Assembly: GCA_963767005.1 (NCBI GenBank)
Contig: CAVYCN010000010.1
Coordinates: 64,001-128,000 of the forward strand
Length of the DNA: 64,000 nucleotides
Reading direction: 5' to 3'
From: an uncultured Actinomycetes bacterium
Lineage (GTDB): Bacteria > Actinomycetota > Thermoleophilia > UBA2241
Both the position numbers and the translations under genes were made by a program. Positions 11,569 through 54,931 of this stretch are shown one piece after another; the stretch's first letter is position 1; each line of letters opens with the position of its first letter. Below the pieces are notes generated by a model. The model saw only the letters and a program-made list of their open reading frames with translations. It searched no databases and had not been told where the DNA came from.

Positions 11569-11596
11569 TCGTCGGCAGGCGGCCCGGCCGACTGGA
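11569..11596 (-). promoter_or_regulatory. Putative sigma-28 (FliA/WhiG)-type promoter for the 2401 aa gene
   Basis: Minus strand TCCAG-N15-GCCGACGA. Confidence 0.5.
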
Positions 11597-11621
11597 TGGG
11601 ACATGTGACTAGCCCCTGGAT

Positions 11622-11670
11622 GCGGAGAGGGCCGGCCGGGCGCACGCGCCGCCCGGCCGGCCCTCTCCGC
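11622..11670 (-). terminator. Hairpin downstream of the 2975 aa gene (21-bp stem)
   Basis: gcggagagggccggccgggcg-cacgcgc-cgcccggccggccctctccgc. Confidence 0.8.
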
Positions 11671-11685
11671 GAGCGCTACCCGGCG

Positions 11686-14600
11686 CTACTTGATGATCAG
11701 TTTCTTGGCGGTGAGCCTGGTCTGCCTGTTGCCGGCGAGGTCGACCGCCGACACCTTCCAGGTGTAGCTGCCCGGCTTGAGCTTCGCCTTGTACTTGTAG
11801 ACGAGGTTGCGGTTGGTCGCGGCCTGCTTGATCACGATGCGCTTCACGACCTTCTTCTTGAGGTAGATCGTGATCGTCACCCTCGCGTAGCCGCAGCTCG
11901 GCGATGCGTCGGTCACGCGGTACGACAGCTTGCCGACCTTGTTGTGCTTGATCGTCACATTCTTCAGGCCCTTGCCCGAGGGCTTGCCCAGGTCGATGCG
12001 CACGGTGGCGGAGCGAGCGGGGTTCTCGATCGTCCCGGCCGTGTTCACCGAGCGATAGAGGATGGTGGTCTGGCCGGCCGTGCTGATCGGGAGCGGTGTG
12101 CCCGCGGCGATCGGCGTCCAGGTGCCGCCGCCGTCGCGCGAGTACTCGGTGTGGTCGATCGGGGCGCCGCTGCCCGGTGTCGCGGTGAAGGTCAGCGAGA
12201 CCGGATGGTTCACCCAGGCGGCCGTCGGCAGGCCGTGGATGATCGTGTTCGGCATGGTCGGGTCGATGTTCACCGTGAAGGTGGCGATCGCCGTCGCGTT
12301 GCCGATGGCGTCGCTCGCCGTGTACTCGTAGGTGGAGCTGTGCGGCTGGCCGTCGGTCGGCAGCGGGACGTTCACAGTGGCCTGGGCGGCGTTCACCGGG
12401 GTCCAGGTCGCGGCGCCCTGCAGCCGGTAGTCGATCTGGCTCACACCGGCGCCGGCGTCGATCGCCGACAGGTGCACGGCAACGGCCGCGTTGTGCCAGT
12501 AGGCGTCGGCGTCGTTTGAGACGACCGGGCCCTGGGTGTCGATCTTCACCGAGCAGGTGCCCGTGGCGCTCGTGTTGCCGGCGTTGTCGGTCGCCTGGTA
12601 TTCGTAGGCGTGCACGCCGTCGTTGGAGCCGTCGCTCGGGGCCGGCACGACGAACTGGCCGTTCGTCGCCGGCAACCACGTCGCCGCGCCCTGCAGGCGG
12701 TACTGCACGCTCGCGATGCCGCTGCCGTTCGCGCCGTCGTCGGCCGTCACCGTGACCGTGACCGGCGCGTTGTACCAGGCGCTGTCGCTGTCGTCGCCCA
12801 CGGTCGGCGGCGTCGCGTCGATGTTGACGTAGCCGACGTTGGCCGGCGCCTCGAGGTTGCCGGCGGCGTCGACCGACCAGTATTCGATGGTATGCGAGCC
12901 GTCGCCGCTCACCTGGAACGAGCCGCTGTAGGTCTGTCGCGTGCCGCCGTCGATCGTGTAGTAGGTGGCGGCCACACCGCCGCTCATGCCCGAGGTCTTG
13001 TCGCTCGGCTCGAGCGTGACGGTCTGCGGCGTGGTCGCCCAGCCGGTCGTGGGGCTGCTCTGCAGGTCCTGGGTGGTCGTGGTCGGGGGTGTCTGGTCGA
13101 CGTTCAGGTAGCAGGTCTGCGTCACGCCGTCCACGTGGTAGCTGTTCTCGGCGTAGAAGACGATCACATGGCTGCCGTCGGTGCTCTCGGGGATCGTCAC
13201 CGTGTTGGCCGCAGTCTGCTGCGCGCCGCCGTCGACCGTGTAGTAGATCGTGAACGGCCCGTTGTCGCCGCCGGCGGTGATCGTCGCCGAAGCCGGCCCG
13301 GTGTGCCAGTCGGAGCTCGCGTCGGCGGTGAGGCCGTTGCTCTGCGCGTACGGGTTGGAGATGTTCACCCAGCCGGTGTGCGTGGCCTCGACGTTGCCGG
13401 CCTTGTCGGTCGCGTAGTAGGTGATCTCGTGCTGACCGTCGCCGCTGACCGTGAACTGGCCGCTGTAGGTCTGGGGACTGCCGGTGTCGAGCGTGTAGGT
13501 GATCGACTGCAGGCCCGAGACGGCACCCGTGCCGTCGCTCGCCGAGAGGCTCACTGTCTGGCTCGTGGTGCGCCAGTCGGAGATCGAGTCGGGGGCGAGG
13601 CCGGGGTCGGTCGAGGTCGGCGGCGTGGTGTCGATGTTCACGTAGCCGTGCTCGATGGCCTCGGTGTTGCCGGCGTTGTCGACCGACCAGTACGTGACGG
13701 CGTGCTGGCCGTCGGCGCTGATCGTGAACGGTCCCGTGTAGGTCTGCTGGGCGCCGCCGTCGATCGTGTAGGAGGTCGTCGCCACACCCGACAGGCCGTC
13801 GCTCGCGGTGAGGCTGACGAGCTGTGGCGAGTTCACCCAGCCCGAGTTGCTCGTGGCTGCGAGGTTGGTCGCCGAGGTGACCGGCGCCACGGTGTCGACG
13901 TTCACAAAGCCGACGTGCGGGGTCTCGATGTTGCCGATCTTGTCGACCGACCAATAGACGATGCGGTGGCTCTTCGAGCCGCTGACCGTGAACGCGGCGG
14001 TGTAGGTCTGGCGCGTCCCGCCGTCGAGGGTGTAGTACGTGACGGCCGCGCCGCCGCTCATGCCTGATCCCGCGTCGGACGCGGTCAGGTGGACGAGCTG
14101 GCTCGTCTGCTGCCAGCCGGTGTCGGCACTCGTCTGCAGATCGCTCGTCGTGGTCTGCGGCGCCTGCGTGTCGATCTTGACCGTGCAGGTGTGCAGTGTG
14201 CTCGTGTTGCCGGCGTTGTCGGTCGCCTGGTACTCGTAGGTCTGGGCGCCGTCGTCGCTGCCGCCAGCCGGCGCCGGCACCGTGAAGGCGTTGTTGGTCG
14301 CCGCGAGCCAGGTCGACGAGCCCTGCAGGCGGTACTGCGTGCTCGCCACGCCCGAGCCGCCGGTGTCGGCCGGCGTGAGCTGCACGACGACGTCGCTGTT
14401 GTGCCAGACAGCGTCGCTGTCGTCGGTCACGGTCGGCGGCGTGGTGTCGATGTTCACGTAGCCGAGCTTGGCCGTCTCGCTGTTGCCGGCGTTGTCGACC
14501 GACCAGTAGCCGACCATCGTGGAGCCGGCCGTCGATACCTGGAACGGCGTAATGTAGCTCTGGGTGCCCCCGCTGTTCAGGTTGTACGAGGTGCTTGCCA

Positions 14601-17600
14601 CACCGGAGCCGGTGCCGTCGCCGCCGGTCAAGGTGACCGTCTGGGGCGTGTTCTGCCAGCCCGAATGGTTGTTGGCCTGCAGGCCGAGGGCGCTCGTGGT
14701 GGGGGCGCGCGTGTCGATGTTCACCGTGCAGATGCCGCTGGCGCCGCCGACCACGCTCGCGTTACCGGCGTTGTCGATCGCCCGGTACTCGTAGGCGTGC
14801 GACCCGTCGTTCGAATGGTCGGACGGGGCTGCCACCGTGAAGCTGTTGCCGCTCGTGACGAGCCAGGTCTGGCTGCCCTGCGGCCGGTACTGGGTGGCGG
14901 CGATGCCCGAACCGCTGCCGTCGCTCGGGGTGAGCGTCACCGTGAACGCGGCGTCGTGCCAGGCGGCGCCGGCGTTGTCGGTCACGGTCGGTGCGGTCGT
15001 GTCGATGTTGACGTAGCCGCTGCCGGGGGCCTCGGTGTTGCCGGCCGCGTCGACCGACCAGTACGTGATGTGGTGCGAGCCCTCGGCGCTCACCGTGAAC
15101 GGCGTGCTGTAGGTCTGCTGGGCGCCATCTACCGTGTAGTAGGTGGTCGCGGCGCCCGAGACAGCGTCGCTCGCCGACAGCGTCACAGTCACCGGAGCGT
15201 TCTGCCAGCCGGTGCTCGCGCTCGCGACCAGGTTGGTCGCCGTCGTGGTGGGCGGCGTCGTGTCGATGTTCACGTAGCCGTTGTTGACCGCCTCGGTGTT
15301 GCCGAGCGCGTCGACCGACCAGTACGTGACCTGGTGCTGTCCGTCGCCGGAGACGGTGAAGGCGCCGGAGTAGGTCGCCTGGTCACTGCCGTCGAGCGTG
15401 TAGTACGTGGCGGCCGAGCCGCCGGTCATGCCGGAGCCGGAGTCGCTCGGGGCGAGGGTCACGCTGATTGGCGTCGCGTTCGTCACCCAGCCGCTGTGAT
15501 CGTCCGCCTGCAGGTTCGTGGCGGTCGTTGTCGGCGCCTGGGTGTCGATGTTCACGTAGCCGGTGTGCGTGGTCTCGGCGTTACCGGCGTTGTCGGTCGA
15601 GAAGTAGGTGACCGGGTGCGAGCCGTTCGCCGAGATCACGAACAGTACGGTGTAGGGGGTGGCGCTGCCGCCGTCGACCGTGTAGGTCGTGCTCGCGAGG
15701 CCCGAGCCACCGGTGTCGCTGGGACTCAGCGTGACGCTCTGGCTCGCGGTCTGCCAGCCGGTGGTCGCGCTGGTCTGCAGGCCGGTGGCCGTGGTCGTCG
15801 GCTTGGTCAGGTCGATGTTGCAGTAGCCGGTCTCGTGGACGCTTTGCACGCTCACGCTGTTCGTCGCGTAGTAGCTGACGGCGTGACTGCCCTGCGTGCT
15901 GAACGTCACGCTGGCGGGGCTGGCAGCGGTCGTCCAGGTGGTGCCGCCGTCGGTGCTGTAGGAGACGGTGATCGGCGTGTGGTCGCCGCTGCCCGTGATC
16001 GTCACCGTGGTGGCCGCCTTCTGCCACCCGGAGCTCGCGTCGGGCGCCAGGTTCGTCGCCTGGGCATTCGGGTTGGAGATGTTCACGTAGCCGGTCTTGT
16101 GGACGGTCACGTTGCCCAGCGCGTCGACTGCCCAGTACACGATCGCGTGCGAGGTGTTGACGGTGTTCGCGACGGTGAACGGGCCGGAGTAGGTGGTCTG
16201 GGCGCCGCCGTCGACCGTGTAGTAGATGTGGACCACGCCCGAGCCGGCATCGGTCGCGGCGAGCGTGACCTGCTGGCTCGCGGTCTGCCAGCCGGTCAGG
16301 TCGTCGACCTGCAGGCCGGTCGGTGTGACGACCGGTCCCTGGGTGTCGATCTTGACCGTGCAGGTGTGCGTCGCGCTCGGGTTGCCGGCGTTGTCGAGGG
16401 CGCGGTACTCGTAGATGCGCGCGCCGTCGTTCGAGCCGTCGCTCGGCGCCGCCACGACGAACTGGTTGCCGGTCGCGTCCAGCCACGTCGACGAGCCCTG
16501 CAGCCGGTACTGGGTGCCCGCGACGCCCGAACCGCCGGTGTCGTGCGGCGTGAGCGTGACGGGCACCGGCTGGTTGTGCCAGGCGTCGTCGGCGTCGTCG
16601 GCGACCGTCGGCGCCGTGCTGTCGATGTTCACGTAGCCGGTGTTCTGGCTTTCGATGTTGCCGGCGGCGTCGACCGACCAGTAGAGGACGGTGTGCGAGC
16701 TCTGGCCCGACACGCCGAACGAGTTCGTGTAGGTCTGCGCGGGCTGCGAGTCGAGCTTGTAGTAGGTGGTCGCCGTGCCCGACAGATCGTCGGTGGCGGC
16801 CAGGCTCACCGTCTGGCTCGTGTTCTGCCAGCCGGTCGTGGCGCTGCTCTGCAGGCCGGTCGCCGCGGTCTGCGGCGCTGTCCAGTCGATGTTCACGTAG
16901 CCGACGTTGGCCGGCGTCTCGATGTTGCCGGCCGCGTCGACCGACCAGTAGGTCACGGTGTGCGAGCGCTCGCCGCTCACCTGGAACGCGCCGCTGTAGG
17001 TCTGCTGGGCGCCGCCGTCGAGCGTGTAGTAGGTGGCGGCGCTGCCGTTGGCCATGCCCGATGTGGCGTCGCCGGCCGACAGGTTCACCGTCACCTGGGC
17101 AGCGTTGGTCCAGCCGCTCGTGGCGCTGCTCTGCAGGCCGGTCGCCGTGGTCGTCGGCGGCGTGGGGTCGATGTTCACGTAGCCGACGTTGGCCGGCGTC
17201 TCGACGTTGCCGGCCGCGTCGACCGACCAGTAGGTCACCCTGTGCGAGCGCTCGCCGCTCACCTGGAACGCGCCGCTGTAGGTCTGCTGGGCGCCGCCGT
17301 CGACCGTGTAGTAGGTCGCCGCGCTGCCGCCGGTCATGCCCGACGTCGCGTCGCTCGCGCTCAGGGAGACGCTCTGCGCGGTGGTCACCCAACCGGAGCT
17401 GCCGGTCGTCTGCAGGCCGGTCGCCGTGGTCGTCGGCGGCGCGCCGTCGATGTTCACGTAGCCGGTGTGCTGCGGCTCGATGTTGCCGACCGCGTCGACC
17501 GACCAGTACTTGACGGTGTGCGAGCGCTCGCCGCTCACCTGGAAGGCGCCGCTGTAGGTCTGCATGTCGCCGCCGTCGACCGTGTAGTAGGTCGCCGCGC

Positions 17601-20600
17601 TGCCGCCGGTCATGCCCGCGCCGCCGTCGCTCGCCGTGAAGCGGATCGTCTGGGCGCCGCTTACCCAGCCGCTCGTACCGGTCGTCTGCAGGCCGGTCGC
17701 CGTGGTCGTCGGTGCCGTGCTGTCGATGTTCACGTAGCCGGTGTTGTGCGTGGCGTCGTGCGCCTCGATGTTGCCGGCCACGTCGACCGACCAGTAGGTC
17801 ACCGGGTGCGAGCCGTCGCCGGTCACGAGGAACGGACCGGTGTAGAGCTGAGCCGAGCCGCTGTCGACCGTGTACCAAGTCGACGAGAGGCCCGAGCCGC
17901 CGGTGTCCGACGCGCTCAGCTTGACGGTGACGCCGGTCGTCGACCAGCCGCTCGCCTGGGTCGACTGCAGGTTCGTCGCCGCGGTCTGCGGCGCGGTCAG
18001 GTCGAGGTTCACGTAGCCGGTCTGGTGCAGGCTGTCGATCCCGACGTTGTTGGTCGCCCAGAAGACGACGGGGTGGCTGCCCTGCGTGCTCACCGTGAAC
18101 GAGGCGGGGTCGCTCGCGGCCTTCTGCGGCGTCGTGCCGTCGATGCCGTAGGTGACCGAGATCGGGGCGTGGTCGCCGGAGCCGGTGATCGTCACCGTGG
18201 CGGCGGTGTCCTGCCAGCCCGAGCTGCCATCGGCGGCGAGGCCGGCGGCCTGGGCGTACGGGTTGGAGATGTTGACCCAGCCGGTGTGCACGGCCTCGAC
18301 GTTGCCGGCCGCGTCGGTGGCCCAGTAGGTCACGGGGTGCTGCCCCTGGCCGGAGACGGTGAAGGGCGTCGAGTAGGTCTGGGTGCCGCCGCCGTCGATC
18401 GTGTAGGAGATGCTCGCCACGCCTGAGCCCAGGCCGTCATCGGCCGACAGGCTCACCGTCTGGCTCGTGGTGCGCCAGCCCGAAAGGTCGTCCGCCGCGA
18501 GACCGACAGCCGTCGTGGCCGGCGCGCTCGTGTCGATCCACACCGTGCAGCTGCCGATCGTGCTCGAGTTGCCGGCGTTGTCGAGGGCGCGGTACTGGTA
18601 GACGTGGACGCCGTCGGCGGAGTGGTCGGCCGGTGCCGCCACGGTGAAGGCGTTGCCGGTCGCCGTGGTCCACGTCGAGCCGCCCTGCAGCCGCTCCTGG
18701 GTGCCGGCCAGGCCGCTGCCGCCGCTGTCGGCGGGCGTCAGGTGGACGGTCACCGCCGCGTGGTGCCACAGGCCGTCGGAGTCGTCGGTGACCGTCGGCG
18801 CCGCCAGGTCGATGTTCACGTAGCCGGTGTTGGTAGCCTCGGTGTTGTTGACCGCGTCGACCGACCAGTACGTGACTTTGTGCGAGCCCTGGGTCGAGAT
18901 CGTGAAGGCGCCCGTATAGGTCTGTTTCGTGCCGCTGTCGATCGTGTAGTACGTGGCGGCCACGCCGGACAGAGCGTCGTTGCCGGCCAGGCTGACGACC
19001 TGGCTCACGTTCTGCCAGCCGGTCGTGCCGCTTGCCTGCAGGCCGGTCGCCGTGGTGGTCGGCGCCGAGGTGTCGATGTTCACGTAGCCGGTGTGGGTGG
19101 TCTCGACGTTGCCGGCGTAGTCGGTCGACCAGTAGGTGACGGTGTGCGAGCCGTTGCCGGAGACCGGGAACGGTCCGCCGTAGAGCTGCGCCGCGCCGCC
19201 GTCGACCGTGTACTTGGTCGTGGCCACGCCGGAGACGGCGTCGGTCGCCGTGAGCGTGACCGTCTGGCCGGCCGTCTGCCAGCCGGTGTTGCTCGCCGTC
19301 TGCAGGCTGCTCGTCGTCGTGGTCGGCGCGGTGGCGTCGATGTTGACGTAGCCGGTGTGGCTGGTCTCGGTGTTGCCGCCCTTGTCGACCGACCAGTATG
19401 TGATCTTGTGCGAGCCCTGGGTCGAGATGGTGAAGGGCGCCGTGTAGGTCGTCTGGGCGCCGCTGTCGATCGTGTAGTAGGTGGCGGACACGCCGGATTG
19501 CGAGTCGGTCGCGTTCAGGATGACCTGCTGCCCCGCCGTCTGCCAGGTGCTGCCTGAGGACTGCAGGCCGGTCGCCGTGGTGACCGGCGGGGTCGAGTCG
19601 ATCAGGTAGGTCTGGCAGGTGCCGCCGGCGCCGCAGGCCCACAGGCTGCCGCCGGCGCCGCAGATGCCGCGCTGGGTCTGCGTGGTCGCCGAGGTCTGCG
19701 TCGCCCACGACGAGCCGCCGTTGGTGGTGCGGTAGATCACGCCACCACCGCCGATCACCCAGGCGTTGTTCGCGTCGGTCGCATATGTGTCGTAGAGCGT
19801 CTGCGTCGTGGTCGGGGTGAGGGTCTGCAGCGTCCAGTTCGTGCCGCCGTTCGTCGTGTGGCTGACGGCGCCGGCGCTGCCGGTCACCCAGCCGACCGAC
19901 GAGTTGACGAAGGAGATGCCGCGGAGCTGCTGCGTGGTGCCCGACGTCTGCGCCGTCCAGTTCGTGCCGCCGTTGGTCGTGTGGCGCACGCCGCCGCCCG
20001 TGGTGATCAGCCAGCCGTTGTTTGTGTCCGTAAAGGCGACGCCGTAGATGGTGCTCGTGATGCCCGTGGTCTGCGCCGTCCAGGTGGTGCCGCCGTTCGT
20101 GGTGTGGCGGACGACGCCGCCGGTGGTGCAGAACCAGCCGTTGTTGGCATCGACGAACGACACGCCGTAGATGGTGCCGGTGACGCCCGAGGTCTGCGTG
20201 GCCCAGCTCGTGCCGCCGTTCGTGGTGTGGTAGACGACCCCGCCGCCGCCGACGGCCCAGCCGTTCTGGTTGCCGACGAAGCAGACGCTGCGCAGGCTCT
20301 GCGTGGTGGTCGGCGTCAGCGTCTGGGCGGCCCAAGTCGTGCCGCCGTTGGTGGTGTGCCTGATGTTGCCGGTGCCGCCGGCCAGCCAGCCGTTGCTGGC
20401 GTCGGCGAACCAGGCGCCATACCAGGTGACGTTGACGCCCGGCGACTGCGCCGTCCAGGCGTTGTAGGTGGCGGCCCGCGCCGTCGTCGCGCCGCAGACG
20501 CCGGCGGCGGCCAGGACGACGAGGACGACAGCTACGCAGGCGCCACACAGGCGGCGGCGGCGGCGTGGCCCGGCGAGCGGACGTCTGCTCGACCACGGGT

Positions 20601-20613
20601 ACGCCTTCATCAC
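11686..20613 (-). CDS. Giant secreted protein (2975 aa): YCF48/BNR-like beta-propeller, roughly 25+ chitobiase-C/OmpL47-like Ig repeats, Lys-rich C-terminal domain
   Basis: Signal peptide; repeats GW.VG.GG.VxHTTNGGTxWxxQTSG; repeats DxTxPTTT...TYYTxDGG.QQTYSG.F.VSG...HxVTYWSVDxAGNxE...GYVNID; RBS AAGGGGG. Confidence 0.9.
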   Translation of the reverse strand: MMKAYPWSSRRPLAGPRRRRRLCGACVAVVLVVLAAAGVCGATTARAATYNAWTAQSPGVNVTWYGAWFADASNGWLAGGTGNIRHTTNGGTTWAAQTLTPTTTQSLRSVCFVGNQNGWAVGGGGVVYHTTNGGTSWATQTSGVTGTIYGVSFVDANNGWFCTTGGVVRHTTNGGTTWTAQTTGITSTIYGVAFTDTNNGWLITTGGGVRHTTNGGTNWTAQTSGTTQQLRGISFVNSSVGWVTGSAGAVSHTTNGGTNWTLQTLTPTTTQTLYDTYATDANNAWVIGGGGVIYRTTNGGSSWATQTSATTQTQRGICGAGGSLWACGAGGTCQTYLIDSTPPVTTATGLQSSGSTWQTAGQQVILNATDSQSGVSATYYTIDSGAQTTYTAPFTISTQGSHKITYWSVDKGGNTETSHTGYVNIDATAPTTTTSSLQTASNTGWQTAGQTVTLTATDAVSGVATTKYTVDGGAAQLYGGPFPVSGNGSHTVTYWSTDYAGNVETTHTGYVNIDTSAPTTTATGLQASGTTGWQNVSQVVSLAGNDALSGVAATYYTIDSGTKQTYTGAFTISTQGSHKVTYWSVDAVNNTEATNTGYVNIDLAAPTVTDDSDGLWHHAAVTVHLTPADSGGSGLAGTQERLQGGSTWTTATGNAFTVAAPADHSADGVHVYQYRALDNAGNSSTIGSCTVWIDTSAPATTAVGLAADDLSGWRTTSQTVSLSADDGLGSGVASISYTIDGGGTQTYSTPFTVSGQGQHPVTYWATDAAGNVEAVHTGWVNISNPYAQAAGLAADGSSGWQDTAATVTITGSGDHAPISVTYGIDGTTPQKAASDPASFTVSTQGSHPVVFWATNNVGIDSLHQTGYVNLDLTAPQTAATNLQSTQASGWSTTGVTVKLSASDTGGSGLSSTWYTVDSGSAQLYTGPFLVTGDGSHPVTYWSVDVAGNIEAHDATHNTGYVNIDSTAPTTTATGLQTTGTSGWVSGAQTIRFTASDGGAGMTGGSAATYYTVDGGDMQTYSGAFQVSGERSHTVKYWSVDAVGNIEPQHTGYVNIDGAPPTTTATGLQTTGSSGWVTTAQSVSLSASDATSGMTGGSAATYYTVDGGAQQTYSGAFQVSGERSHRVTYWSVDAAGNVETPANVGYVNIDPTPPTTTATGLQSSATSGWTNAAQVTVNLSAGDATSGMANGSAATYYTLDGGAQQTYSGAFQVSGERSHTVTYWSVDAAGNIETPANVGYVNIDWTAPQTAATGLQSSATTGWQNTSQTVSLAATDDLSGTATTYYKLDSQPAQTYTNSFGVSGQSSHTVLYWSVDAAGNIESQNTGYVNIDSTAPTVADDADDAWHNQPVPVTLTPHDTGGSGVAGTQYRLQGSSTWLDATGNQFVVAAPSDGSNDGARIYEYRALDNAGNPSATHTCTVKIDTQGPVVTPTGLQVDDLTGWQTASQQVTLAATDAGSGVVHIYYTVDGGAQTTYSGPFTVANTVNTSHAIVYWAVDALGNVTVHKTGYVNISNPNAQATNLAPDASSGWQKAATTVTITGSGDHTPITVSYSTDGGTTWTTAASPASVTFSTQGSHAVSYYATNSVSVQSVHETGYCNIDLTKPTTTATGLQTSATTGWQTASQSVTLSPSDTGGSGLASTTYTVDGGSATPYTVLFVISANGSHPVTYFSTDNAGNAETTHTGYVNIDTQAPTTTATNLQADDHSGWVTNATPISVTLAPSDSGSGMTGGSAATYYTLDGSDQATYSGAFTVSGDGQHQVTYWSVDALGNTEAVNNGYVNIDTTPPTTTATNLVASASTGWQNAPVTVTLSASDAVSGAATTYYTVDGAQQTYSTPFTVSAEGSHHITYWSVDAAGNTEAPGSGYVNIDTTAPTVTDNAGAAWHDAAFTVTLTPSDGSGSGIAATQYRPQGSQTWLVTSGNSFTVAAPSDHSNDGSHAYEYRAIDNAGNASVVGGASGICTVNIDTRAPTTSALGLQANNHSGWQNTPQTVTLTGGDGTGSGVASTSYNLNSGGTQSYITPFQVSTAGSTMVGYWSVDNAGNSETAKLGYVNIDTTPPTVTDDSDAVWHNSDVVVQLTPADTGGSGVASTQYRLQGSSTWLAATNNAFTVPAPAGGSDDGAQTYEYQATDNAGNTSTLHTCTVKIDTQAPQTTTSDLQTSADTGWQQTSQLVHLTASDAGSGMSGGAAVTYYTLDGGTRQTYTAAFTVSGSKSHRIVYWSVDKIGNIETPHVGFVNVDTVAPVTSATNLAATSNSGWVNSPQLVSLTASDGLSGVATTSYTIDGGAQQTYTGPFTISADGQHAVTYWSVDNAGNTEAIEHGYVNIDTTPPTSTDPGLAPDSISDWRTTSQTVSLSASDGTGAVSGLQSITYTLDTGSPQTYSGQFTVSGDGQHEITYYATDKAGNVEATHTGWVNISNPYAQSNGLTADASSDWHTGPASATITAGGDNGPFTIYYTVDGGAQQTAANTVTIPESTDGSHVIVFYAENSYHVDGVTQTCYLNVDQTPPTTTTQDLQSSPTTGWATTPQTVTLEPSDKTSGMSGGVAATYYTIDGGTRQTYSGSFQVSGDGSHTIEYWSVDAAGNLEAPANVGYVNIDATPPTVGDDSDSAWYNAPVTVTVTADDGANGSGIASVQYRLQGAATWLPATNGQFVVPAPSDGSNDGVHAYEYQATDNAGNTSATGTCSVKIDTQGPVVSNDADAYWHNAAVAVHLSAIDAGAGVSQIDYRLQGAATWTPVNAAQATVNVPLPTDGQPHSSTYEYTASDAIGNATAIATFTVNIDPTMPNTIIHGLPTAAWVNHPVSLTFTATPGSGAPIDHTEYSRDGGGTWTPIAAGTPLPISTAGQTTILYRSVNTAGTIENPARSATVRIDLGKPSGKGLKNVTIKHNKVGKLSYRVTDASPSCGYARVTITIYLKKKVVKRIVIKQAATNRNLVYKYKAKLKPGSYTWKVSAVDLAGNRQTRLTAKKLIIK

Positions 20614-20693: not shown

Positions 20694-20721
20694 TACTCGG
20701 CATGAGTACGAGGGAAGTTAA
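20694..20721 (-). promoter_or_regulatory. Putative sigma-28-type promoter for the 2975 aa gene
   Basis: Minus strand TTAAC-N15-GCCGAGTA. Confidence 0.55.
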
Positions 20722-20934
20722 TGGGACGTTTGCCTAGGTAGGCGACCCTAGGGGGGTAGGGAACGGTGCCCAGACGGTCTGGGGAAGGGGCCCTATGGCG
20801 CGGCGCTGCGCGGGCGGGCCGCCGGGCGGCTCGCCCGCCCGCGCCGGTCAACGCCGTAGGATGGCCGTGCGGCGGTGGTACGGGTGCTGCGGCGGCGCGG
20901 AGCGCCGCCGCACTCGGGCGAGACGGGAGGCGCG

Positions 20935-24249: not shown

Positions 24250-24277
24250 TCAAGCACCCCCGCTCCGCTGCCGATAG
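24250..24277 (+). promoter_or_regulatory. Putative sigma-28-type promoter
   Basis: TCAAG-N15-GCCGATAG. Confidence 0.65.
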
Positions 24278-28435: not shown

Positions 28436-28464
28436 CTAAGCCGCGGGTCGCAACGCGCCGATAC
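28436..28464 (+). promoter_or_regulatory. Putative sigma-28-type promoter
   Basis: CTAAG-N16-GCCGATAC. Confidence 0.65.
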
Positions 28465-28533: not shown

Positions 28534-31500
28534 ATGAGTCACGAGCAGGTGAACTGCCTGATCATGCTCTGCGCCAGCGTGCTCATGTTCGCAGAGGCGG
28601 TCCTCGCCCTGCGGCGGTTCCGGTTCCCGGGCGGCGTCGCCATGTGCCTCGCCTTCACGGTGGGCGGCGTCGAGTCGCTCTGCTACGCCCTGGTCTTCCT
28701 GCTCGGCAGCGGCGATACCATGGTGCACCTCGCCGCGGTCTACTCGGTGACAGGGCCGGCGATGGGCGCGTTCTGGTTTGCCTTTGCGGCACGCTTCACA
28801 CGGCTGCGCGCGCTGGGGCGCACCTGGGTCGCGGTGGCCCTCGTGGGAGCCGCGCTGTCGCTGATCGTGGCCGTGACATCGGATCCGGCGCTGATCTACC
28901 CGCCGCACAGCACCCTCACCGCGATGGACTTCGCGCACGTCAACGTGCAGGGCAGCGGCGTGCTGTTCACGATCCAGCTCGTGTGGTTCTACGCGCTCGT
29001 GCTGGCCGGCATGGTGATGCTGCTCGGCGAGGCGCTGCGCTCGTGGGACGTGTTCCGCGGCCAGGCCGAGGCGGTGATCGCGAGCATCGGCATCGCCTTC
29101 CTGCTCGACGTCGCCTTCATGGCGGGCTACACGCCGGTGCGCGGTCTGCACCTGGGGCTCGTCGTCCTCTCCGTCGCCATGCTGCCGCTGATCTGGGCGC
29201 TGCCGGGCCTGCGCGCGTCCGACTACTCGGCGGCCTGGCAGCGGCGCATCCTCGAAGGCATGAGCGACGCCGTGCTCGTCACCGACGACGAGGGCCGGAT
29301 CGCGAGCGCCAACCGCGCGGCACAGCGGCTCCTGACGGTCGAGTCGGGGCGCGAGCACATGGCGCCGGTCCTGAGCGCGTATTCGTGGCTGGCCGAGCTG
29401 GGCGAGGAGATCGACGACCTCGACGCCGACACCGGCGCCGGCTGTACCGTCACGCTGCCCGGCGACGCCGGCGACCGGCACTTCGACGCGCGCCGGTCGA
29501 GCTTGCGCGGTCATGGCGGGCGAGAGCTCAGCCGCGTGCTCGTGCTCCGCGACGTCACCGAGCGCGTCGAGACGGCGAGCGAGCTCGACGACGCCAACAG
29601 CCGGCTGCAGTCGCTCGTCGACGCGAGCCTCGAGTTCGGCGGCTCGCTGAACACGGCCGACGTGCTCTCGGTGGCGGGGCGCCGCATGTGTCAGCTGTCG
29701 GGGGCGGACCTGTGCACGATCTACCGCCTGAAGGGCGGCCGCGCGCAGGAGCTCAAGACGACCAGGGGCACGATCATCGCCGACGAGACCGACGAGGGCA
29801 GCTTCGCCCTCAGCGAGTACGACGTCTCCCGGTCGGCCGTCGAGAGCCACAACGTGATCTGCGTGTCGGATACGAGGGCCGACCCCCGCCTGTCCGACCT
29901 CGAGCGCAGCGACGCCGAGCGGTACGGCTACCGGTCGAGCATCGACGTCCCGCTCGTGTCCGAGGGCACCGTGGTCGGACTCGCCGTGCTGACGAGCGCC
30001 GAGCCCCGTGAGTACGGCCCGCTCGTACTCCTGCCGAGCCTCGCCCATAACGCCGCCCAGGCGCTCGTGAACTCCGAGATGTTCGCCGAGCTGCGCCAGA
30101 CCGCCAAGCGCCTGGCGCTCGTGAGTGAATCCGGCGCGCTCTTCTCGTCGACCCTGGCCGTCGACGACGTGCTCGTGACCTCCTGCCGCCGGCTCTGCGA
30201 GATCGCCGACGCCCCGATCTGCAGCGTGTACGTGCTCGACGAGGGGACGCTGCGCTGTCGCGCCGGCGTGCTCGACGGCGAGGTCGACCGGGTCTGGATG
30301 GCGCAGAGCTTCAGCCTCGACCTGTGGCCGACCACGCGTCTCGCGCTCGAATCCCGCACGGTCGTGGCGGTGGCCGACCTCGACGATCCCCGCCTCGGCG
30401 TCGAGCAGCGCGCCTCGATGGCCGAGCGCGGCGAGGTGAGCCTGCTGGTCGTGCCGCTCGTCGCCCGCGGCGAGGCGTTCGGCGTGGTCGAGCTGATCGA
30501 CCGGCGGCCGCGCCGGTATGCCGCCGACGAGCAGACCACCGTCGAGGCGGTCTGCAGCGCGGCGGCTCTGGCCATCCGCAACGCCGACGCCTACCGTAGC
30601 GAGCAGGAGCACGTTGCCCGTCTGGCCTCGTTGCTCGACGCGAGCCGGGCGATCACCTCGACCGTCGTGCTCGACCGAGTGCTGCCCCTCGTGGCGCAGA
30701 AGACCTGCCAGGCGGTGAGCGCCTCGGAGTGCGTCATCTGGGAGTACGACGCCGAAACCGACGCGCTGATCGAGCGCTCCTACTACAGCTCCACCGGTTT
30801 CGACTACACGCCGAATGATCGCATCGACCTGGCCGAAGACGAAGGCCGTCGCGCTACGATCCTCGCCGGTGGGGCGGTCGAGGAGCAGCAGTCCGACCCC
30901 GAGCTGCCGCCGGCCATCCGTGCGGTCATGGAGCAGTGGGGCGAGCAGACCAAGCTGTCGGTACCGCTCATCTTCGACGGCAGGCCGATCGGCATGCTCG
31001 TCCTGATCGAGCTCGAGCACCCTCGCCACTTCCGGCCCGACGAGCTCGATCTCGTGCAGGCGCTGGCCGAGCAGGCCGCGGTCGTCATCCAGAACGCCCG
31101 GCAGTACGAGCGACTCGAGACCACGGGCAAGCTCCTCGAGTCGCAGGTCGAGCTGCAGCAGGTCGTGCTCGAGCTGTCCGGCAGCCTGCTGTCGACGCTC
31201 GACGGCGGCGACGTGTTCGCACGCATCGCCGGCCTCGTGCAGCGCGTGGTCGCCAACGACAACCTCGAGATCCGCCTCGTCGACCGCGAGGCCGGCGAGC
31301 TGTACTGCGCCTACGCGAGCGCCGAAGAGGAAGACTACGTGAAGAACTGGCGCTCCTCGCTCGACGCGGGCGTGAGCGGCTGGGTCGTCCAGCACAACGA
31401 GGCGCAGCTCGTGAACGACATGCCGGGCGACCCGCGCGTCGCCGTCGTACCGGGCACCGACCCCGATCCGCAGGCCTCGATCCTCGTGCCGCTCACAGTC

Positions 31501-33847: not shown

Positions 33848-34606
33848 TCAGCCGCCGCTCGCGCTCTGTCCCGCGATGTCCTGCAGGAACGCCCGCAGGT
33901 CGGGCGGGACGCTGGGGTCGGCGTACGTCAGGCCGACCGGGTTGCGGCCGATGATCGTCTTGTAGACCACGCACGCGGCCAGGTAGGTACCGGCCGGGGT
34001 CGGATGGCCGTCGGGGTTGTTCAGCACGACGTCCGGGCGCGCGAGCTGCGCCGCCGCGAAGGCCTCGCCGGCGGGTGCGACCCTCGCTTCGAGACCGGCC
34101 GCCACGCCACGGTAGGCCGCCGCGAGGTTCGCCGTGGTCACACCCATGCCGACGCTGTCGGGTCGCTGCCACGTCATGAGCAGGACCGTCCGCGCGCCGG
34201 TCGCCCGGATGGCGCGATCGAAGCGTGCGGCGTAGTCGGCGAACAGGGCGCGGTCGATGACCGGCGTCTGGCTCTGCTCCTGCAGCACGACGTAGTCCCA
34301 GTGGCCGCCGCGGATGGCGCTGAGGGCCGCTCCCGTATCCCACTGCTGGCGCAGCGTCGCGCCGCCCGCGGTGATGCTCGAGGTCGTGCAATCCGGATCG
34401 AGGTGGTGGAGCTCGGCGTCGATGCCGCCGTTGTAGAACGTGAAGCTGTTCCCGATGAACAGCACGCGCGGCCCGGCGTGGCCGCCGCAGCCCGACAGCA
34501 GGGCCGCGGCGGCCACAAGGACGCACGCCGCGGCCACGACGGCCCAGCCGACCAGTGCGGCGGCCGCCGTGCCTCGCCGGCCGCCCCGTCGCTGCAGACC
34601 ACTCAT
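33848..34606 (-). CDS. SGNH/GDSL-type (DUF4886-like) hydrolase lipoprotein
   Basis: Lipobox LLSGC; RVLFIGNSFT, WDYVVLQEQS, DGHPTPAGTYLAA. Start may be 34606, 34624 or 34633. Confidence 0.8.
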   Translation of the reverse strand: MSGLQRRGGRRGTAAAALVGWAVVAAACVLVAAAALLSGCGGHAGPRVLFIGNSFTFYNGGIDAELHHLDPDCTTSSITAGGATLRQQWDTGAALSAIRGGHWDYVVLQEQSQTPVIDRALFADYAARFDRAIRATGARTVLLMTWQRPDSVGMGVTTANLAAAYRGVAAGLEARVAPAGEAFAAAQLARPDVVLNNPDGHPTPAGTYLAACVVYKTIIGRNPVGLTYADPSVPPDLRAFLQDIAGQSASGG

Positions 34607-34642: not shown

Positions 34643-34670
34643 GTATCGGCAGGGTGGGCGGGACGCTCGA
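34643..34670 (-). promoter_or_regulatory. Putative sigma-28-type promoter
   Basis: Minus strand TCGAG-N15-GCCGATAC. Confidence 0.55.
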
Positions 34671-41557: not shown

Positions 41558-43066
41558 GTGAAGCACACTTCGGCCCGCGTCATCATGCTTCAGGGGACGG
41601 CCTCGCACGCCGGCAAGACGGTGCTCGCGGCCGCGTTGTGCCGGCTGTACGCGCAGCGCGGTCTCGCAGTGGCGCCGTTCAAGGCCCAGAACATGGCGCT
41701 GAACTCGGCCGTGACCGCGGCCGGCGACGAGATCGGCCGCGCCCAGGTCTTCCAGGCGGCGGCCGCCGGCGTCGAGCCGGTGGTCGACATGAACCCGGTG
41801 CTGCTCAAGCCGACCACGGGCGGCGCGAGCCAGGTCGTCGTCATGGGCCGTCCGGTCGGCGAGATGGCGGTGCCCGCCTATCAGGCCTACCAGGCGACCG
41901 TCTGGCCCGTCGTGACCGCGGCGCTGGCGCGTCTGCGGGCGACCCACGACCTGATCGTGATCGAGGGGGCGGGCAGCTCCGCCGAGGTCAACCTGCGCCA
42001 CGCCGACATCGTCAACATGCGGCTCGCGCGGCACGCGAGCGCGCCGGTGCTGCTCGTCGGCGACATCGACCGGGGCGGCGTGTTCGCGGCGCTGCTCGGC
42101 CACATGGAGCTCTTCACGCCGGACGAGCGCGCGCTGGTCGCCGGCTTCATCGTCAACAAGTTCCGCGGCGACGCCGCGCAGCTCGCGTCCGGGCTCGAGC
42201 TGCTCGAGGCGCGCACGGGCGTGCCGACGCTCGGCGTTGTGCCGTTCCTCGAGGGCTGGCGCGGCGACGAAGAGGACTCGCTGGCGCTCGACGCGCCGCC
42301 GTCGCGCCGCTCGCGCGACGGCGTCGTGGTCGCCGTGGTGCGGCTCCCGTACCTCAGCAACACGACCGACTTCGACGCCCTGGCCGCCGAGCCCGACGTG
42401 GTCGTGCGCTACGCACGCACGCCCGCCGAGCTGAGCGGGGCGAACCTGATCGTGCTGCCCGGCACCAAGAGTACGATGGCCGACCTCGCCTGGCTGCGCG
42501 AGCGAGCGCTCGACGCGGCGATCCTGGGCGCCGCCCGCGCCGGCGTGCCGGTCGCCGGCATCTGCGGCGGCTACCAGATGCTCGGCCGGCGCCTGCGCGA
42601 CCCCGGGCACGTGGAGTCGCCCGTCGCGCAGTGCGCGGGGCTCGGACTGCTCGACGTGACGAGCACGTTCACCGGCCGCAAGCGGACGATGCGGGTGCAC
42701 GGCAGCACCCGCGGCGGGGGCCTCGTCGCCGAGGGAGCGGAGCTGTGCGGCTACGAGATCCACGTGGGCAGGACGCGGCGGGCCGCCGGGGTCCGCCCGT
42801 TCGCGCGTCTGCGGCCGCGCGGCGGACCGGCCCGCGACGACGGTGCGGTCTCGGCCGACGGGGCGGTCTTCGGTACGTACGTGCATGGCCTCTTCGACGC
42901 GCCCGGGCTGCGAGCCGCGCTGCTGAACCGGTTGCGCGTGGCGGCCGGGCTGCCGGAGCGGCCGCCGGCCGCCGTCGAGTCCGACCTGGACCGGCTCGCG
43001 CGCCACGTCGAGGAGCACCTCGACGTCGGGCGCCTCGATGAGATCGTCGGTATTCGCTCAAACTGA
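41558..43066 (+). CDS. cobQ: Cobyric acid synthase CobQ/CbiP
   Basis: MLQGTASHAGKT, PFKAQNMALNS, MNPVLLKP, EGAGS.AEVNL, GDIDRGG, GICGGYQMLG, GYEIH, GTYVHGLF. Confidence 0.93.
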   Translation: MKHTSARVIMLQGTASHAGKTVLAAALCRLYAQRGLAVAPFKAQNMALNSAVTAAGDEIGRAQVFQAAAAGVEPVVDMNPVLLKPTTGGASQVVVMGRPVGEMAVPAYQAYQATVWPVVTAALARLRATHDLIVIEGAGSSAEVNLRHADIVNMRLARHASAPVLLVGDIDRGGVFAALLGHMELFTPDERALVAGFIVNKFRGDAAQLASGLELLEARTGVPTLGVVPFLEGWRGDEEDSLALDAPPSRRSRDGVVVAVVRLPYLSNTTDFDALAAEPDVVVRYARTPAELSGANLIVLPGTKSTMADLAWLRERALDAAILGAARAGVPVAGICGGYQMLGRRLRDPGHVESPVAQCAGLGLLDVTSTFTGRKRTMRVHGSTRGGGLVAEGAELCGYEIHVGRTRRAAGVRPFARLRPRGGPARDDGAVSADGAVFGTYVHGLFDAPGLRAALLNRLRVAAGLPERPPAAVESDLDRLARHVEEHLDVGRLDEIVGIRSN

Positions 43067-43085
43067 ACGGCCCTGCGGTCGATGA
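43058..43085 (+). promoter_or_regulatory. Possible sigma-28-type promoter variant upstream of the S41 protease
   Basis: TCAAA-N15-GTCGATGA. Confidence 0.4.
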
Positions 43086-46274: not shown

Positions 46275-46302
46275 CGCCGCCAGGTTTCTCACCCGTGACG
46301 CT

Positions 46303-50676: not shown

Positions 50677-50712
50677 CGCGTCCCGGCTACGCGAGGGTGC
50701 AGGCGGCGCCGG

Positions 50713-51033: not shown

Positions 51034-51124
51034 GACGCCCTCTCTCCCCGTCCCCGCGCATCCCTCCGGCGGGCTGTGATCGCCTGATTCCCAGCGGCGC
51101 GCCGGCAGTAACGCGGAATCGGCG

Positions 51125-52591: not shown

Positions 52592-52661
52592 CCAGCGGCC
52601 CTGCGCGCTGTGGAGCCGCAGGCCGGCGGAGCGTGTCTCGCGCTCGATCGGTCTGCCGCGC

Positions 52662-52877
52662 TCAGGCTGCGTCGCGGCCCTCGGCGAGCGGGTCGAGTCC
52701 GAGATGACGGCGGACCGTCACGGCGAGCGCCGCGAGGCGCTCGTCGCAGACGGCGAGCTCGTCGATCACATCGCCGGGCAGCTCCAGCAGGAGCATACCA
52801 GCCACCAGGGCGCGGCAGCCCTCGACGTCCTCGAGGATCTGGGCGAGCAGATACGTGTGGTTGTCGTTGAGACTCAC
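52662..52877 (-). CDS. Small hypothetical protein (71 aa, helical)
   Basis: Good GC3 codon usage and natural amino-acid composition; no clear RBS. Confidence 0.5.
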   Translation of the reverse strand: MSLNDNHTYLLAQILEDVEGCRALVAGMLLLELPGDVIDELAVCDERLAALAVTVRRHLGLDPLAEGRDAA

Positions 52878-53000
52878 AGAAGCACCAACGCCGATGCGAG
52901 CTTTCCGGAGTCGCCGGTCGACGGTCCTCAGCCGATCGCCGGCCGGCTACGGTCTCTTCTTCGCAATACCCCGGCGCCGCGCGGGATAGCCCATTAGCGT

Positions 53001-53040
53001 GGCGGTCGTCGCCCCGGCTGCGGCGGTCGTCGCCCCGGCT
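53001..53040. repeat. 19-bp direct repeat (period 21) at the 3' end of the Mrr-like gene
   Basis: ggcggtcgtcgccccggct at 53001 and 53022. Confidence 0.7.
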
Positions 53041-54073
53041 ACGGCGTGGCGAGATCGGGCAGCGCGTCGGTGAGCGAGCCCAGGCCCGCCGTCAGGGCCT
53101 CTGAGAGCCGGTCGTCGATCTCGCCGGTGGTCGCGTCGACCGCGACCACCCGGCGGGCGGCGCCCTGCCGCAGCACGGCGGCGTAGACGGGCAGGTGGCA
53201 GGCGACGGTCTCGTCGATCGTGAGGGAGTCGGCCGGCAGCGGCAGGCCGAGCTCCTCGGCGGCGAGCTCCCAGCGCCGGCGGGTGGCCTCGCGCGTCACG
53301 GTCCGCCAGCGCGCGAACGTGGTCTCGATCTCGCGGCGCAGCGCCGCCGGCCTGACGCGGGTGGGCAGGCGATGGGCGCCGAGCACGACCTCGCCGGGAC
53401 GGGGGTCGTCGGCGTAGCTTGCCAGCAAACGTCCGTCGAGCGCCTCGTAGAGGTTATAGACGGACGAGTGCCGGGCGTGGCGGCGCAGGCGGCCTTGCTC
53501 ACGCGTGCAGCCCAGCGTGAGCAGCAGGCAGGGCAGCCACAGCAGGTCGAACCACAGGACCTCCTCGGCGCCGAGGCCGAGCACGCCCTTGCCGCGGCGG
53601 CGCTCCGCGAGGCGGGCGGCGCGCTCGGGGGCGACGGTGACGGCGAAGCCGAGCGCCGCCGCCCCCGAGCGCGCCGCCCCGAGCTGGGCGAGGCGCGCCC
53701 GGCCGAGACGCCGCTCGAGCTCGTCCGGTCCCCAGACCTCGACGCCGAGCTCGCTCGCCGACAGCCCGGCGCCGTCGGTCGCGCCGCTCAGGGCGACGAC
53801 GATCGTCTTGTCGGCGCCGACGTCGGCGCTCACGAAGGCCGCCTTGGCCAGCACCTGCTTGTCGACCGGATGGCCCCAGGCCTTGCACTCCACGACGAGG
53901 GAGAAGGACGTGAGGCCGTCGTTCTTCTCGGCGTAGACGTCGATCTCGTGCCGCGCGCCGGAGCGCCCGGTGAGCACGACGTTGCGGCGGGCGGCATAGC
54001 CGCCCGCCGCCAGCGCCTCGGCCACCTCGGCCTCGAGGCGCCGACCCTTCTCTGACTCACGCTCGTCGGACAC
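53039..54073 (-). CDS. Mrr-like PD-(D/E)xK restriction endonuclease domain protein with unknown C-terminal domain
   Basis: KGRRLEAEV, GRSGARHEIDV, VVECKAW, GVEVW. Start re-assigned to GTG 54073. Confidence 0.75.
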   Translation of the reverse strand: MSDERESEKGRRLEAEVAEALAAGGYAARRNVVLTGRSGARHEIDVYAEKNDGLTSFSLVVECKAWGHPVDKQVLAKAAFVSADVGADKTIVVALSGATDGAGLSASELGVEVWGPDELERRLGRARLAQLGAARSGAAALGFAVTVAPERAARLAERRRGKGVLGLGAEEVLWFDLLWLPCLLLTLGCTREQGRLRRHARHSSVYNLYEALDGRLLASYADDPRPGEVVLGAHRLPTRVRPAALRREIETTFARWRTVTREATRRRWELAAEELGLPLPADSLTIDETVACHLPVYAAVLRQGAARRVVAVDATTGEIDDRLSEALTAGLGSLTDALPDLATP

Positions 54074-54239
54074 AGTCGCTCGATGAGAGGGGCAGCGGCC
54101 GGTCTCGCGGTCGTCCCGGATGGAGCGCCGCCCTCGGTCTCGCCTCAGAGTTCGACATCGCCGGAGTCTTTCTTGCCGCCGCCGGCGCTGTAGACTTGGC
54201 GACGGCTCGAGCCAAAACGACTGGTAGCGGAGGGAGCAC

Positions 54240-54848
54240 ATGAGCCTGGCCAAGCGACTCGACGCGCTGCGCGAGCGGGCGCAGCGCGACGTCATCAACT
54301 ACGACGACGATGCGCTGCTGTCGTCTCGTGCGACGGCGATCCCGGGCGAGGTGGCCGACCGGCACTACCTCGCCCCCGTGCGCCTGCGCGGCGTGATGTT
54401 CGACACGCCCCGGTCGGTGCTCATGGGCGTGGCCGGCGAGCCCGGCCTCGAGGCGCCCGGCGGCCAGCCGGTCGTGGTCCGCGGCACCCGCGTGAACCTG
54501 TACGTGACGGTCGACGGCGTCTCGTCGCTCGCCTTCCTGCACGAAGAGGACGAAGACTTCGCGCAGGCCCACATCGAGGTCGAACCCGAAGAGCGGCGCC
54601 TGGTCGTCCGTTACCTCGCCGAGCACCCCGACGCCGCCCAGGCCAACCAGTTCTTCGAGCGCAGCGTCAAGTACATCGAGGCCGAGGTGAAGCGCGCCAA
54701 CGAGGTGGTGCGGGAGTTCAACGACGGCCTCGTGCCGGCCCTGACCGACGCGCTCGAACGGGCCTGTAAGTGGGCCAAGGAGCGCCGCGACTTCGCGAAC
54801 AAGCTCACGCCGCCGCGCCTCCAGGAGGGCATCTGGTCGCGGGGCTGA
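54240..54848 (+). CDS. Hypothetical protein (202 aa)
   Basis: RBS GGAGGGAG, strong coding-like codon usage, C-terminal amphipathic helices. Confidence 0.8.
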   Translation: MSLAKRLDALRERAQRDVINYDDDALLSSRATAIPGEVADRHYLAPVRLRGVMFDTPRSVLMGVAGEPGLEAPGGQPVVVRGTRVNLYVTVDGVSSLAFLHEEDEDFAQAHIEVEPEERRLVVRYLAEHPDAAQANQFFERSVKYIEAEVKRANEVVREFNDGLVPALTDALERACKWAKERRDFANKLTPPRLQEGIWSRG

Positions 54849-54903
54849 CGGGAGCCCGCAGACACCGGCGCCGCGCCGCGCCGCTCTTCTCCGTGCGAGG
54901 CCG

Positions 54904-54931
54904 TTAACCGAACGCCGGTTTCGGCCGATGT
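54904..54931 (+). promoter_or_regulatory. Putative sigma-28-type promoter
   Basis: TTAAC-N15-GCCGATGT. Confidence 0.6.

Follow-up and report, generated by a model that had tools for sequence, protein, structure and literature searches.

The stretch of DNA analysed here (hereafter the window) is 64,000 nucleotides (nt) long and belongs to the 3.44-Mb genome of an uncultured Thermoleophilia bacterium with type IV pili (G000; 19 contigs, cited below by C-numbers, rated 100% complete). It contains eight copies of a two-box motif which a preliminary description had taken for sigma-28 (FliA/WhiG-like) promoters, co-ordinating giant surface proteins, wall-modifying enzymes and cyclic di-GMP (c-di-GMP) signalling. 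All eight strings lie where that description placed them, on the strand of the gene they precede and 36-155 nt upstream of it (minus strand for those at 11569, 20694, 34643 and 54149), and the window holds no flagellar genes, as had also been stated. Our analysis points to a genome-wide regulon of the sigma factor WhiG with two classes of promoters: plain ones, and ones in which a conserved operator adjoins the -35 position, as at the two giant genes of the window.

We scored the motif with a two-box weight matrix trained on the 2099 upstream regions outside the window, the window sites being held out, and seeded with the published rule only (TAAA and GCCGATAA, with at most two mismatches; 27 seeds). 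In total, 2130 upstream regions were cut from G000, 31 of which lie inside the window; the 3116 genes of this genome were called by a custom hexamer caller, which missed the first part of a third giant gene, on C2. The matrix converged on TCAAG/TAAAG-N15(14-16)-GCCGATA(C/A/G). The held-out sites at 24250 (21.1 bits), 28437 (18.5), 54904 (16.3), 34643 and 43058 (16.1 each) are the five top scores of the whole 64 kb, both strands included; lower scores are obtained at 20694 (12.9 bits), 11569 (12.3) and 54149 (3.0). The 12-bit level is attained by seven of the 31 window regions and the 16-bit level by five, and none of 26,855 dinucleotide shuffles yields either count, which bears out the enrichment upstream of window genes. 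Site density is somewhat higher than in the rest of the genome (5/31 versus 91/2099, p=0.011), for a window that was chosen for such sites.

A strong plain promoter, TCAAG-N15-GCCGATAG (24250..24277, plus strand), precedes the gene of an exported GH123-family glycoside hydrolase (PF13320; 24343..26061, plus strand), and 13 of 17 homologous loci carry a box of at least 13 bits, two of the misses being second genes of tandem pairs. Another plain promoter, TAAGC-N15-GCCGATAC (28437..28464, plus strand), lies before the gene of a 1751-amino-acid (aa) 7TM-PAS-GAF-HD-GGDEF-HD c-di-GMP enzyme (28534..33789, plus strand) and reaches the same score at 3 of 4 homologous loci; the motif itself is real, but its earlier reading as CTAAG-N16 from 28436 is better replaced by the N15 spacing. 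On the minus strand, TCGAG-N15-GCCGATAC (34643..34670; 3 of 5 orthologues at 13 bits or more) precedes the gene of a putative lipoprotein with a weak DUF4886 match and a lipobox-like LLSGC (33848..34606, minus strand). The last plain promoter, TTAAC-N15-GCCGATGT (54904..54931, plus strand), is found at a similar distance and at 13 bits or more in 17 of 22 orthologues, and precedes the gene of a DUF4388 (PATAN-type) protein with an MshE-related c-di-GMP-binding motif (NF053729, 48.9 bits for a cut-off of 38; 55000..56268, plus strand). Such conservation counts come from related, non-independent genomes and are not p-values, and for some genes they cover the best-matching loci only. Across relatives, the spacers between the conserved boxes vary while the boxes hold.

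Two copies had been presented as weaker. The one before ctpA, TCAAA-N15-GTCGATGA (43058..43085, plus strand), overlaps the end of cobQ and precedes an S41 protease gene; it scores well but is conserved in just 1 of the 10 relatives that were examined, and is a possible, uncertain WhiG promoter. The other, before an Mrr-like gene (54149), is scored equally well by 989 of the 2130 regions, and we reject it as a WhiG promoter because its score is at background level. Seven of the eight copies thus score as sigma-28 promoters, and conservation upstream of orthologues, which had been proposed as a check, is observed in varying fractions at the six sites other than ctpA and Mrr.

Both giant genes are on the minus strand. 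The first encodes a 2401-aa exported Ig-repeat protein with Invasin_D3/Big_1 repeats and a C-terminal Lcl_C domain (4208..11413); its promoter, TCCAG-N15-GCCGACGA (11569..11596), adjoins at the -35 position an operator, TAGTCACATGTCCCA (11597..11611), which scores 19.6 bits with a matrix built from 95 sites of other genomes and ranks among the top seven of G000. The second encodes a 2975-aa exported protein with YCF48-like propeller repeats, 24 OmpL47-type repeat stretches and Ig-like domains (11686..20613), behind TTAAC-N15-GCCGAGTA (20694..20721) and an adjoining operator, TAGGCAAACGTCCCA (20722..20736; 22.0 bits), which keeps the same spacing in 5 of 10 relatives. Alone, these two promoters would be borderline, since chance accounts for about 20-30% of the regions found at 12 bits; they are credible despite scores of 12-13 bits because they are conserved together with the operator. 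Among homologues of the 2401-aa gene, boxes of at least 13 bits occur in 2 of 5, and all 5 have either the operator with a -10 box or a strong plain box; for the 2975-aa gene, 6 of 10 relatives score at least 13 bits and 3 of the remaining 4 keep the operator plus -10 box. The preliminary description was right to place WhiG-type sites before the giant genes, although these belong to a second promoter class. Just 3' of the -10 box of the 2401-aa gene lies a second conserved element, TAGGAA-N13-(G/A)(T/G)CCAA (window 11538-11562, minus strand), which is also present behind several relatives' giant-gene promoters, is doubled at one of these loci (L316) and occurs once in G000. The window has no match in Rfam, and we discarded a riboswitch reading of the GGCAAAC..GTCCCAT stretch, which has no Rfam match and whose pairing partner at 20694 is missing in relatives.

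Genome-wide, 91 training regions match at 15 bits, whereas shuffles give 4.3 and wrong spacers 9.4; at 13 bits the corresponding figures are 119, 16.5 and 23.4. The counts are inflated because the matrix was trained on the same regions. The window, spacer and strand tests are less affected by this flaw. Because divergent promoters contaminate a reverse-complement control, strand bias was assessed on 1319 non-divergent regions, which contain 59 sense versus 5 antisense matches at 15 bits. Similarly, a fixed-pattern scan gave 28 sense-only versus 3 antisense-only intergenic matches and, without any matrix, T[CAT]AA[GC] was found at spacers of 14-16 nt before 33 of 175 -10-like sites, versus 6 over 28 other spacers. 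The motif is strand-, spacer- and position-specific across the genome, in agreement with what had been seen in the window, and the median distance from promoter to start codon is 68 nt. These results point to about 90-100 WhiG-type promoters; a few of the regulon counts are duplicates, because near-identical gene and promoter copies occur on two contigs (C6:1650-6267 and C17:2179-6833; C5:52049 and C13:32178).

The sigma-28-family gene on which the earlier interpretation depended exists: whiG (C2:445995-446813) is the sole sigma-28 gene of G000, among 24 region-4 matches. Its product scores above the NCBIfam cut-off (NF004935, 368.4 bits for a cut-off of 343), its best solved match is Streptomyces venezuelae WhiG (E 7e-89), and its closest relatives are records labelled Thermoleophilia. 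To our knowledge, no other sigma type would be expected to recognise GCCGATA. K46, G50 and R51 align with the S. venezuelae c-di-GMP contacts K57, G61 and R62 (3/3), and 4 of the 5 sigma-4 contacts with the anti-sigma factor RsiG (T235, L236, Y239, E240, L242) are kept, Thr235 being replaced by Ala (contact residues as listed in the accessible part of PMC12871210). RsiG itself is a single-motif, 93-aa protein (C2:404687-404968; PF22802, 59.9 bits, above cut-off) similar to solved RsiG, in which 4 of the 5 residues of the signature E(X)3S(X)2R(X)3Q(X)3D are found, His replacing Gln. The anti-sigma factor of WhiG would then be RsiG, rather than FlgM, for which the preliminary description had suggested looking, FlgM having been the object of no search. 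As neither flagellin (Flagellin_N) nor FlhA was found in G000, a genome rated complete, a flagellar FliA/SigD-type (or WhiG1) regulon, which would come with a flagellar cluster and a flagellin target, is not supported. No box lies upstream of whiG in G000 or in 18 of 18 relatives, which gives no sign of autoregulation. Six RpoD-like sigma factors are also encoded in G000 (L001, L004-L007 and L009), one of which (C4:554692) has a 17.2-bit WhiG box.

Promoters resembling T(A/C)AA-N16-GCCGATAA lie upstream of genes on the sense strand, as in a WhiG2/RsiG regulon, and the strict rule published for Rubrobacter retrieves 27 of them in G000. We regard it as highly probable, on sequence grounds, that the motif set represents a WhiG regulon. 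Annotation covered 82 proteins from 80 of the 124 regions of at least 13 bits, mostly among the top 96. Pilus targets include a pilin, PilM, PilC, a PilB with receiver and MshEN domains and further pilus ATPases, and a type IV pilus cluster is present in G000. A chain-length/tyrosine kinase protein, a priming sugar transferase, glycosyltransferases and an ABC-2 permease are also among the targets, as are NlpC/P60, VanW, YCF48-repeat and Ig-repeat proteins. The remaining assignments comprise nine GGDEF proteins, an HD protein, MraZ, a ClpC-type ATPase, Rho, several regulators and a Roadblock protein; for many other annotated proteins no family match was obtained. WhiG boxes precede 13 of 27 GGDEF/EAL genes versus 194 of 3116 genes overall (p=1e-9), and N-terminal hydrophobic stretches, a crude proxy for export, are found in 35 of 96 targets versus 376 of 1931. 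The proposed sigma-28 co-ordination is supported in that c-di-GMP enzymes and exported proteins are enriched, but the programme extends over the whole genome, with type IV pili, polysaccharide and c-di-GMP genes at its centre.

Among the WhiG-driven genes, four encode GAF-HD-GGDEF proteins (C19:63641, C2:141411, C4:152949 and C14:49870), three of which have an N-terminal HTH_17/MerR-like DNA-binding domain in Pfam, and the fourth starts similarly.

The heptamer GTCCCAT, correctly reported as common to both giant-gene promoters, belongs to a longer element: it forms the right-hand half of an operator, TAGAC-RNNY-GTYCYA, whose centre lies 28 nt upstream of the -10 box. In relatives with poorly scoring giant-gene promoters, TAGGCRRAYGTCCCA lies exactly 20 nt before GCCGA and the -35 box has decayed. 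A search pattern consisting of the operator, a T, 19 free bases and the -10 core retrieved 149 sites in 72 of the 89 genomes of the family, while the reversed control gave 1. Of 39 well-assembled genomes of the family, 31 contain a match, compared with 4 of 361 from other families; in the latter the control likewise gives 4, and none of the four pattern matches precedes a known target type, so that the pattern is at chance level elsewhere in the class. Among the 97 sites that were read out of 149, the logo is TAGAC-RNNY-GTYCYA-T, with sharp preferences at positions the pattern left loose (91 sites have G, 96 have C); the -10 core is followed by two unconstrained bases, T in 49 sites and A in 45. 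Their -35 score has a median of -3.9 and exceeds 4 in 4 of 97, for a median -10 score of 7.4; being mostly without a -35 box, operator promoters therefore likely need an activator.

With the operator matrix, built from the 95 non-self sites, the seven best-scoring intergenic sites of G000 include the two window promoters. The others lie before the third giant surface gene (C2:152832), a small RNA (C7:111931), a gene for a protein of XRE type (C14:6884), and a gene for a 66-aa member of a small-protein family (C4:152699, with a weak -10 box); the last one is an inverted operator (C3:333380), whose dyad centre is likewise 28 nt away from a -10-like box. The third giant gene (C2:152935-157830, plus strand), also encoding an exported repeat protein, is split over two frames of 742 and 1033 open codons, reflecting either an assembly error in repeats or a real frameshift. 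By downstream target, the 97 sites fall into a short non-coding transcript (32, pattern-based), a 57-aa protein (15), YCF48-type giants (9), another large exported repeat protein (8), receiver-domain proteins (8), PAS proteins (7), an oxidoreductase-like family (5) and invasin-type giants (2), plus singletons. With targets in at least seven unrelated classes, the operator is therefore not one inherited promoter. A scan of loci fetched for other purposes added two operator matches, too few for a test of orientation.

Transcription starting 5-7 nt after the -10 box would put the operator centre near -42, the usual spot for an activator touching sigma region 4. The fixed geometry, the lost -35 box and the tolerance of inversion would fit a dimeric activator, and the operator is probably an activator site. 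LexA was discarded, as the SOS-type boxes of G000 read CGAAC-N4-GTTCG and sit elsewhere, including at lexA. WhiA, with its GACAC motif, was set aside without direct test: positions 6-7 of the operator are more often GC than AC, and the element is restricted to the family.

The commonest operator target (32/97 sites) is a predicted, purine-rich non-coding transcript of about 80 nt, located at C7:111980-112050 (plus strand) in G000 and with homologues at L354, L357, L363, L380, L411 and other loci. It has invariant GGAGACC and G(A/G)GAGAGGA blocks followed by a terminator-like hairpin with compensatory changes. No Rfam match at the gathering score was obtained in five small-RNA loci, and a search for antisense targets gave only 11-12-nt matches, none of them convincing. 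A role as CsrA sponge was rejected, as no CsrA was found in G000.

Which protein binds the operator? Two WhiG-driven regulators are found family-wide, a receiver-GerE (NarL-type) protein and an XRE-type protein. The former is an orphan regulator (C8:101162-101749 in G000) encoded in 81 of the 89 genomes of the family. Its gene has a WhiG box at 29 of 30 loci, and the protein has a near-invariant helix-turn-helix and an intact acidic pocket and phospho-acceptor Asp54; no kinase gene adjoins it. No full-length orthologue was found in 5 of 5 genomes of other families that have WhiG. Among the 39 family genomes at least 90% complete, the regulator occurs in all 31 with an operator match, while the 3 without it keep WhiG and have no operator match (co-occurrence p=0.006, uncorrected for kinship). 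When one mismatch was allowed, the element was recovered in all 3 regulator-positive genomes searched, twice before the 57-aa gene and once before a GGDEF gene, and in neither of the 2 regulator-negative ones. This distribution leads us to favour the NarL-type regulator, by a modest degree, as the operator binder.

Taken as a whole, the data are best explained by a WhiG/RsiG regulon with a second, operator-bearing tier activated by the NarL-type regulator, to which we give a probability of roughly 70% on the basis of sequence comparisons. WhiG would transcribe the sites and RsiG with c-di-GMP would gate WhiG, while the operator near -42 would substitute for the -35 box. At high c-di-GMP, WhiG would stay bound in the RsiG complex, and falling c-di-GMP would release it. 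Plain promoters would then fire on WhiG alone, first expressing pili, polysaccharide, wall enzymes, c-di-GMP enzymes (a feedback) and regulators, including the NarL-type one. This regulator, probably phosphorylated, would recruit the WhiG polymerase to operator promoters, and the costly 250-300 kDa surface proteins, the small RNA and small signalling proteins would follow later or upon a second signal, the overall logic being that of a coherent feed-forward loop. That the family has a two-step c-di-GMP-gated surface programme of its own, in which a WhiG-made NarL-type regulator switches on giant proteins and the small RNA, we hold to be an evenly balanced proposition. It may underlie a lifestyle switch, as the preliminary description suggested.

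Several observations weigh against this interpretation. The contrast between 91 and 4.3 matches is overstated, the matrix having been scored on its own training regions; WhiG has Ala in place of the RsiG-contact Thr235; and RsiG departs from its signature at one residue. The giant promoters of the window keep fair -35 boxes (3.9 and 5.2 bits), and may be partly activator-independent for that reason, and 2 of 5 and 4 of 10 homologous giant promoters use a plain box without operator. Finally, the co-occurrence (p=0.006) rests on three losses among related, partly fragmented genomes, two of the 30 pattern genomes (G046 and G086, outside the one-mismatch search) have the regulator and no exact operator match, and G000 encodes 12 other GerE-domain proteins.

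The same WhiG regulon and activator site could be served by another binder, namely the XRE-type protein (C2:418384-418788), a heterodimer or a factor outside WhiG control. Of the 89 family genomes, 73 encode the XRE protein, a WhiG box is present at 30 of 30 loci of its gene, its paralogue at C14:6998 carries the operator, and the operator is asymmetric, like the BldM-WhiI heterodimer site described in the accessible part of PMC4125116. However, the XRE protein is present in the operator-less G051, G055 and G072 and was not found in the operator-bearing G042 and G094 (co-occurrence p=0.10), a homologue occurs in an operator-less family, and its own upstream region shows a different palindrome, so that we judge this alternative unlikely. 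The XRE gene (minus strand) has a near-invariant WhiG promoter (L381-L410), and at many loci its palindrome resembles GTTGCC-N6-GGCAAC and is possibly its own binding site.

It is quite improbable that the operator is a repressor site or an incidental neighbour, the giant genes being ordinary weak WhiG targets. The place of the operator, next to the -35 position, would allow a bound protein to obstruct polymerase, and the window copies of the operator retain a usable -35 box; but most of the 97 sites have lost the -35 box, whereas the -10 box and the exact 28-nt spacing persist, and this spacing holds for the inverted site. Repressor sites rarely need such fixed geometry. We consider it very improbable that operator-class promoters are read by another sigma factor with a similar -10 box: G000 has many other sigma factors and the -10 boxes of this class are more degenerate (NCCGAYA), but their core and following bases fit the WhiG -10 matrix, the first -35 position still has its T, and homologous genes switch between plain WhiG and operator-class boxes. 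Chance matches in DNA of 72% GC, where GCCGA is a common codon pair and GCCGA[TCG] occurs 29,365 times in coding DNA, are a negligible explanation for the set, which the strand, conservation, spacer and shuffle tests oppose, although chance is likely for the background-level Mrr site (54149) and possible for the poorly conserved ctpA site (43058).

On the features tested, the first tier is a member of the published WhiG2-RsiG kind. In Rubrobacter radiotolerans, also a unicellular early-branching actinobacterium, the accessible text of PMC8325347 reports an (RsiG)2-(c-di-GMP)2-WhiG system with 20 promoters predicted under a strict rule, 12 of them supported by start sites; the single-motif RsiG, WhiG, the promoter type and the pilus and diguanylate cyclase/phosphodiesterase targets are alike. 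In contrast, the -35 box of G000 is mostly TCAAG and its targets add polysaccharide clusters, giant proteins, mraZ, clpC and rho, and that text describes no operator class. WhiG of G000 has the WhiG2-type residues of a phylum-wide WhiG1/WhiG2 prediction (PMC12871210, a preprint), which finds diguanylate cyclase/phosphodiesterase, pilus and transcription-factor targets to be widespread. Its main text names neither Thermoleophilia nor an activator, although its supplementary tables may list Thermoleophilia targets, and its search would miss the operator class because a -35 match was required.

As far as the accessible texts go, a precedent for the second tier is provided by TcrA of Actinoplanes missouriensis, an orphan response regulator which binds upstream of FliA1/2 promoters and activates them (PMC13083903, PMC12691653). 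Its box is a 21-bp direct repeat, GCA(A/C)CCG-n4-GCA(A/C)CCG, whereas the operator is an inverted pseudo-repeat of another sequence, and it acts upstream of fliA genes in a flagellated host without RsiG, while the candidate here would act downstream of WhiG. In Streptomyces, WhiG transcribes the orphan response regulator WhiI, which reaches later genes via a 16-bp, partly asymmetric site (PMC4125116, accessible part); WhiI is atypical, unlike our candidate, which keeps the acidic pocket and Asp54, its site differs in sequence, and its targets are not presented there as WhiG promoters. OsdR/DevR (DosR) boxes are likewise bound by response regulators and consist of a 16-nt inverted repeat with a 4-nt centre, some reading GGGAC-N4-GTCCC, but in the text at hand (PMC5069765) they differ in flanks, symmetry and dormancy/hypoxia targets, so that the likeness is in shape only. 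The literature covered, which left most subscription papers and supplements outside its scope, gave no description of a Thermoleophilia WhiG regulon, of the operator or of the small RNA.

In a common, uncultured and early-branching actinobacterial lineage, c-di-GMP thus likely controls a large surface programme with feedback on c-di-GMP enzymes, and the regulon appears broader than the three direct targets of S. venezuelae or the twelve of Rubrobacter. With one sigma, one regulator and one 45-bp promoter, the operator class would offer a small case in which sigma-28 transcription that depends on an activator could be reconstituted, and it points to a new small RNA. As searches for consensus sigma-28 promoters miss the operator tier, WhiG regulons elsewhere may, if this reading is true, hide similar tiers.

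Three further families were noticed. Hydrophobic peptides of 29-36 aa, with KKW(S/A) or LKWD at their ends, are encoded as two pairs (C2:229055-229283, minus strand; C2:654572-654842, plus strand), each preceded by a strong WhiG box (21.0 and 19.7 bits); a gene for a 420-aa membrane protein follows the first pair. They are possible signalling peptides. Three 65-82-aa proteins contain DRR..ERR repeats (C12:103330-103527, C3:333060-333272 and C8:101919-102167), arginine-rich motifs which we presume might bind c-di-GMP; one has a 23.8-bit WhiG box, one lies after the inverted operator and one is convergent with the candidate regulator. Lastly, a dispersed family of intergenic tandem repeats of about 58 nt, starting with TAGGCGCGC, is found at C2:568365-568481, C8:66755, C12:110267, C14:59666 and C18:120154.

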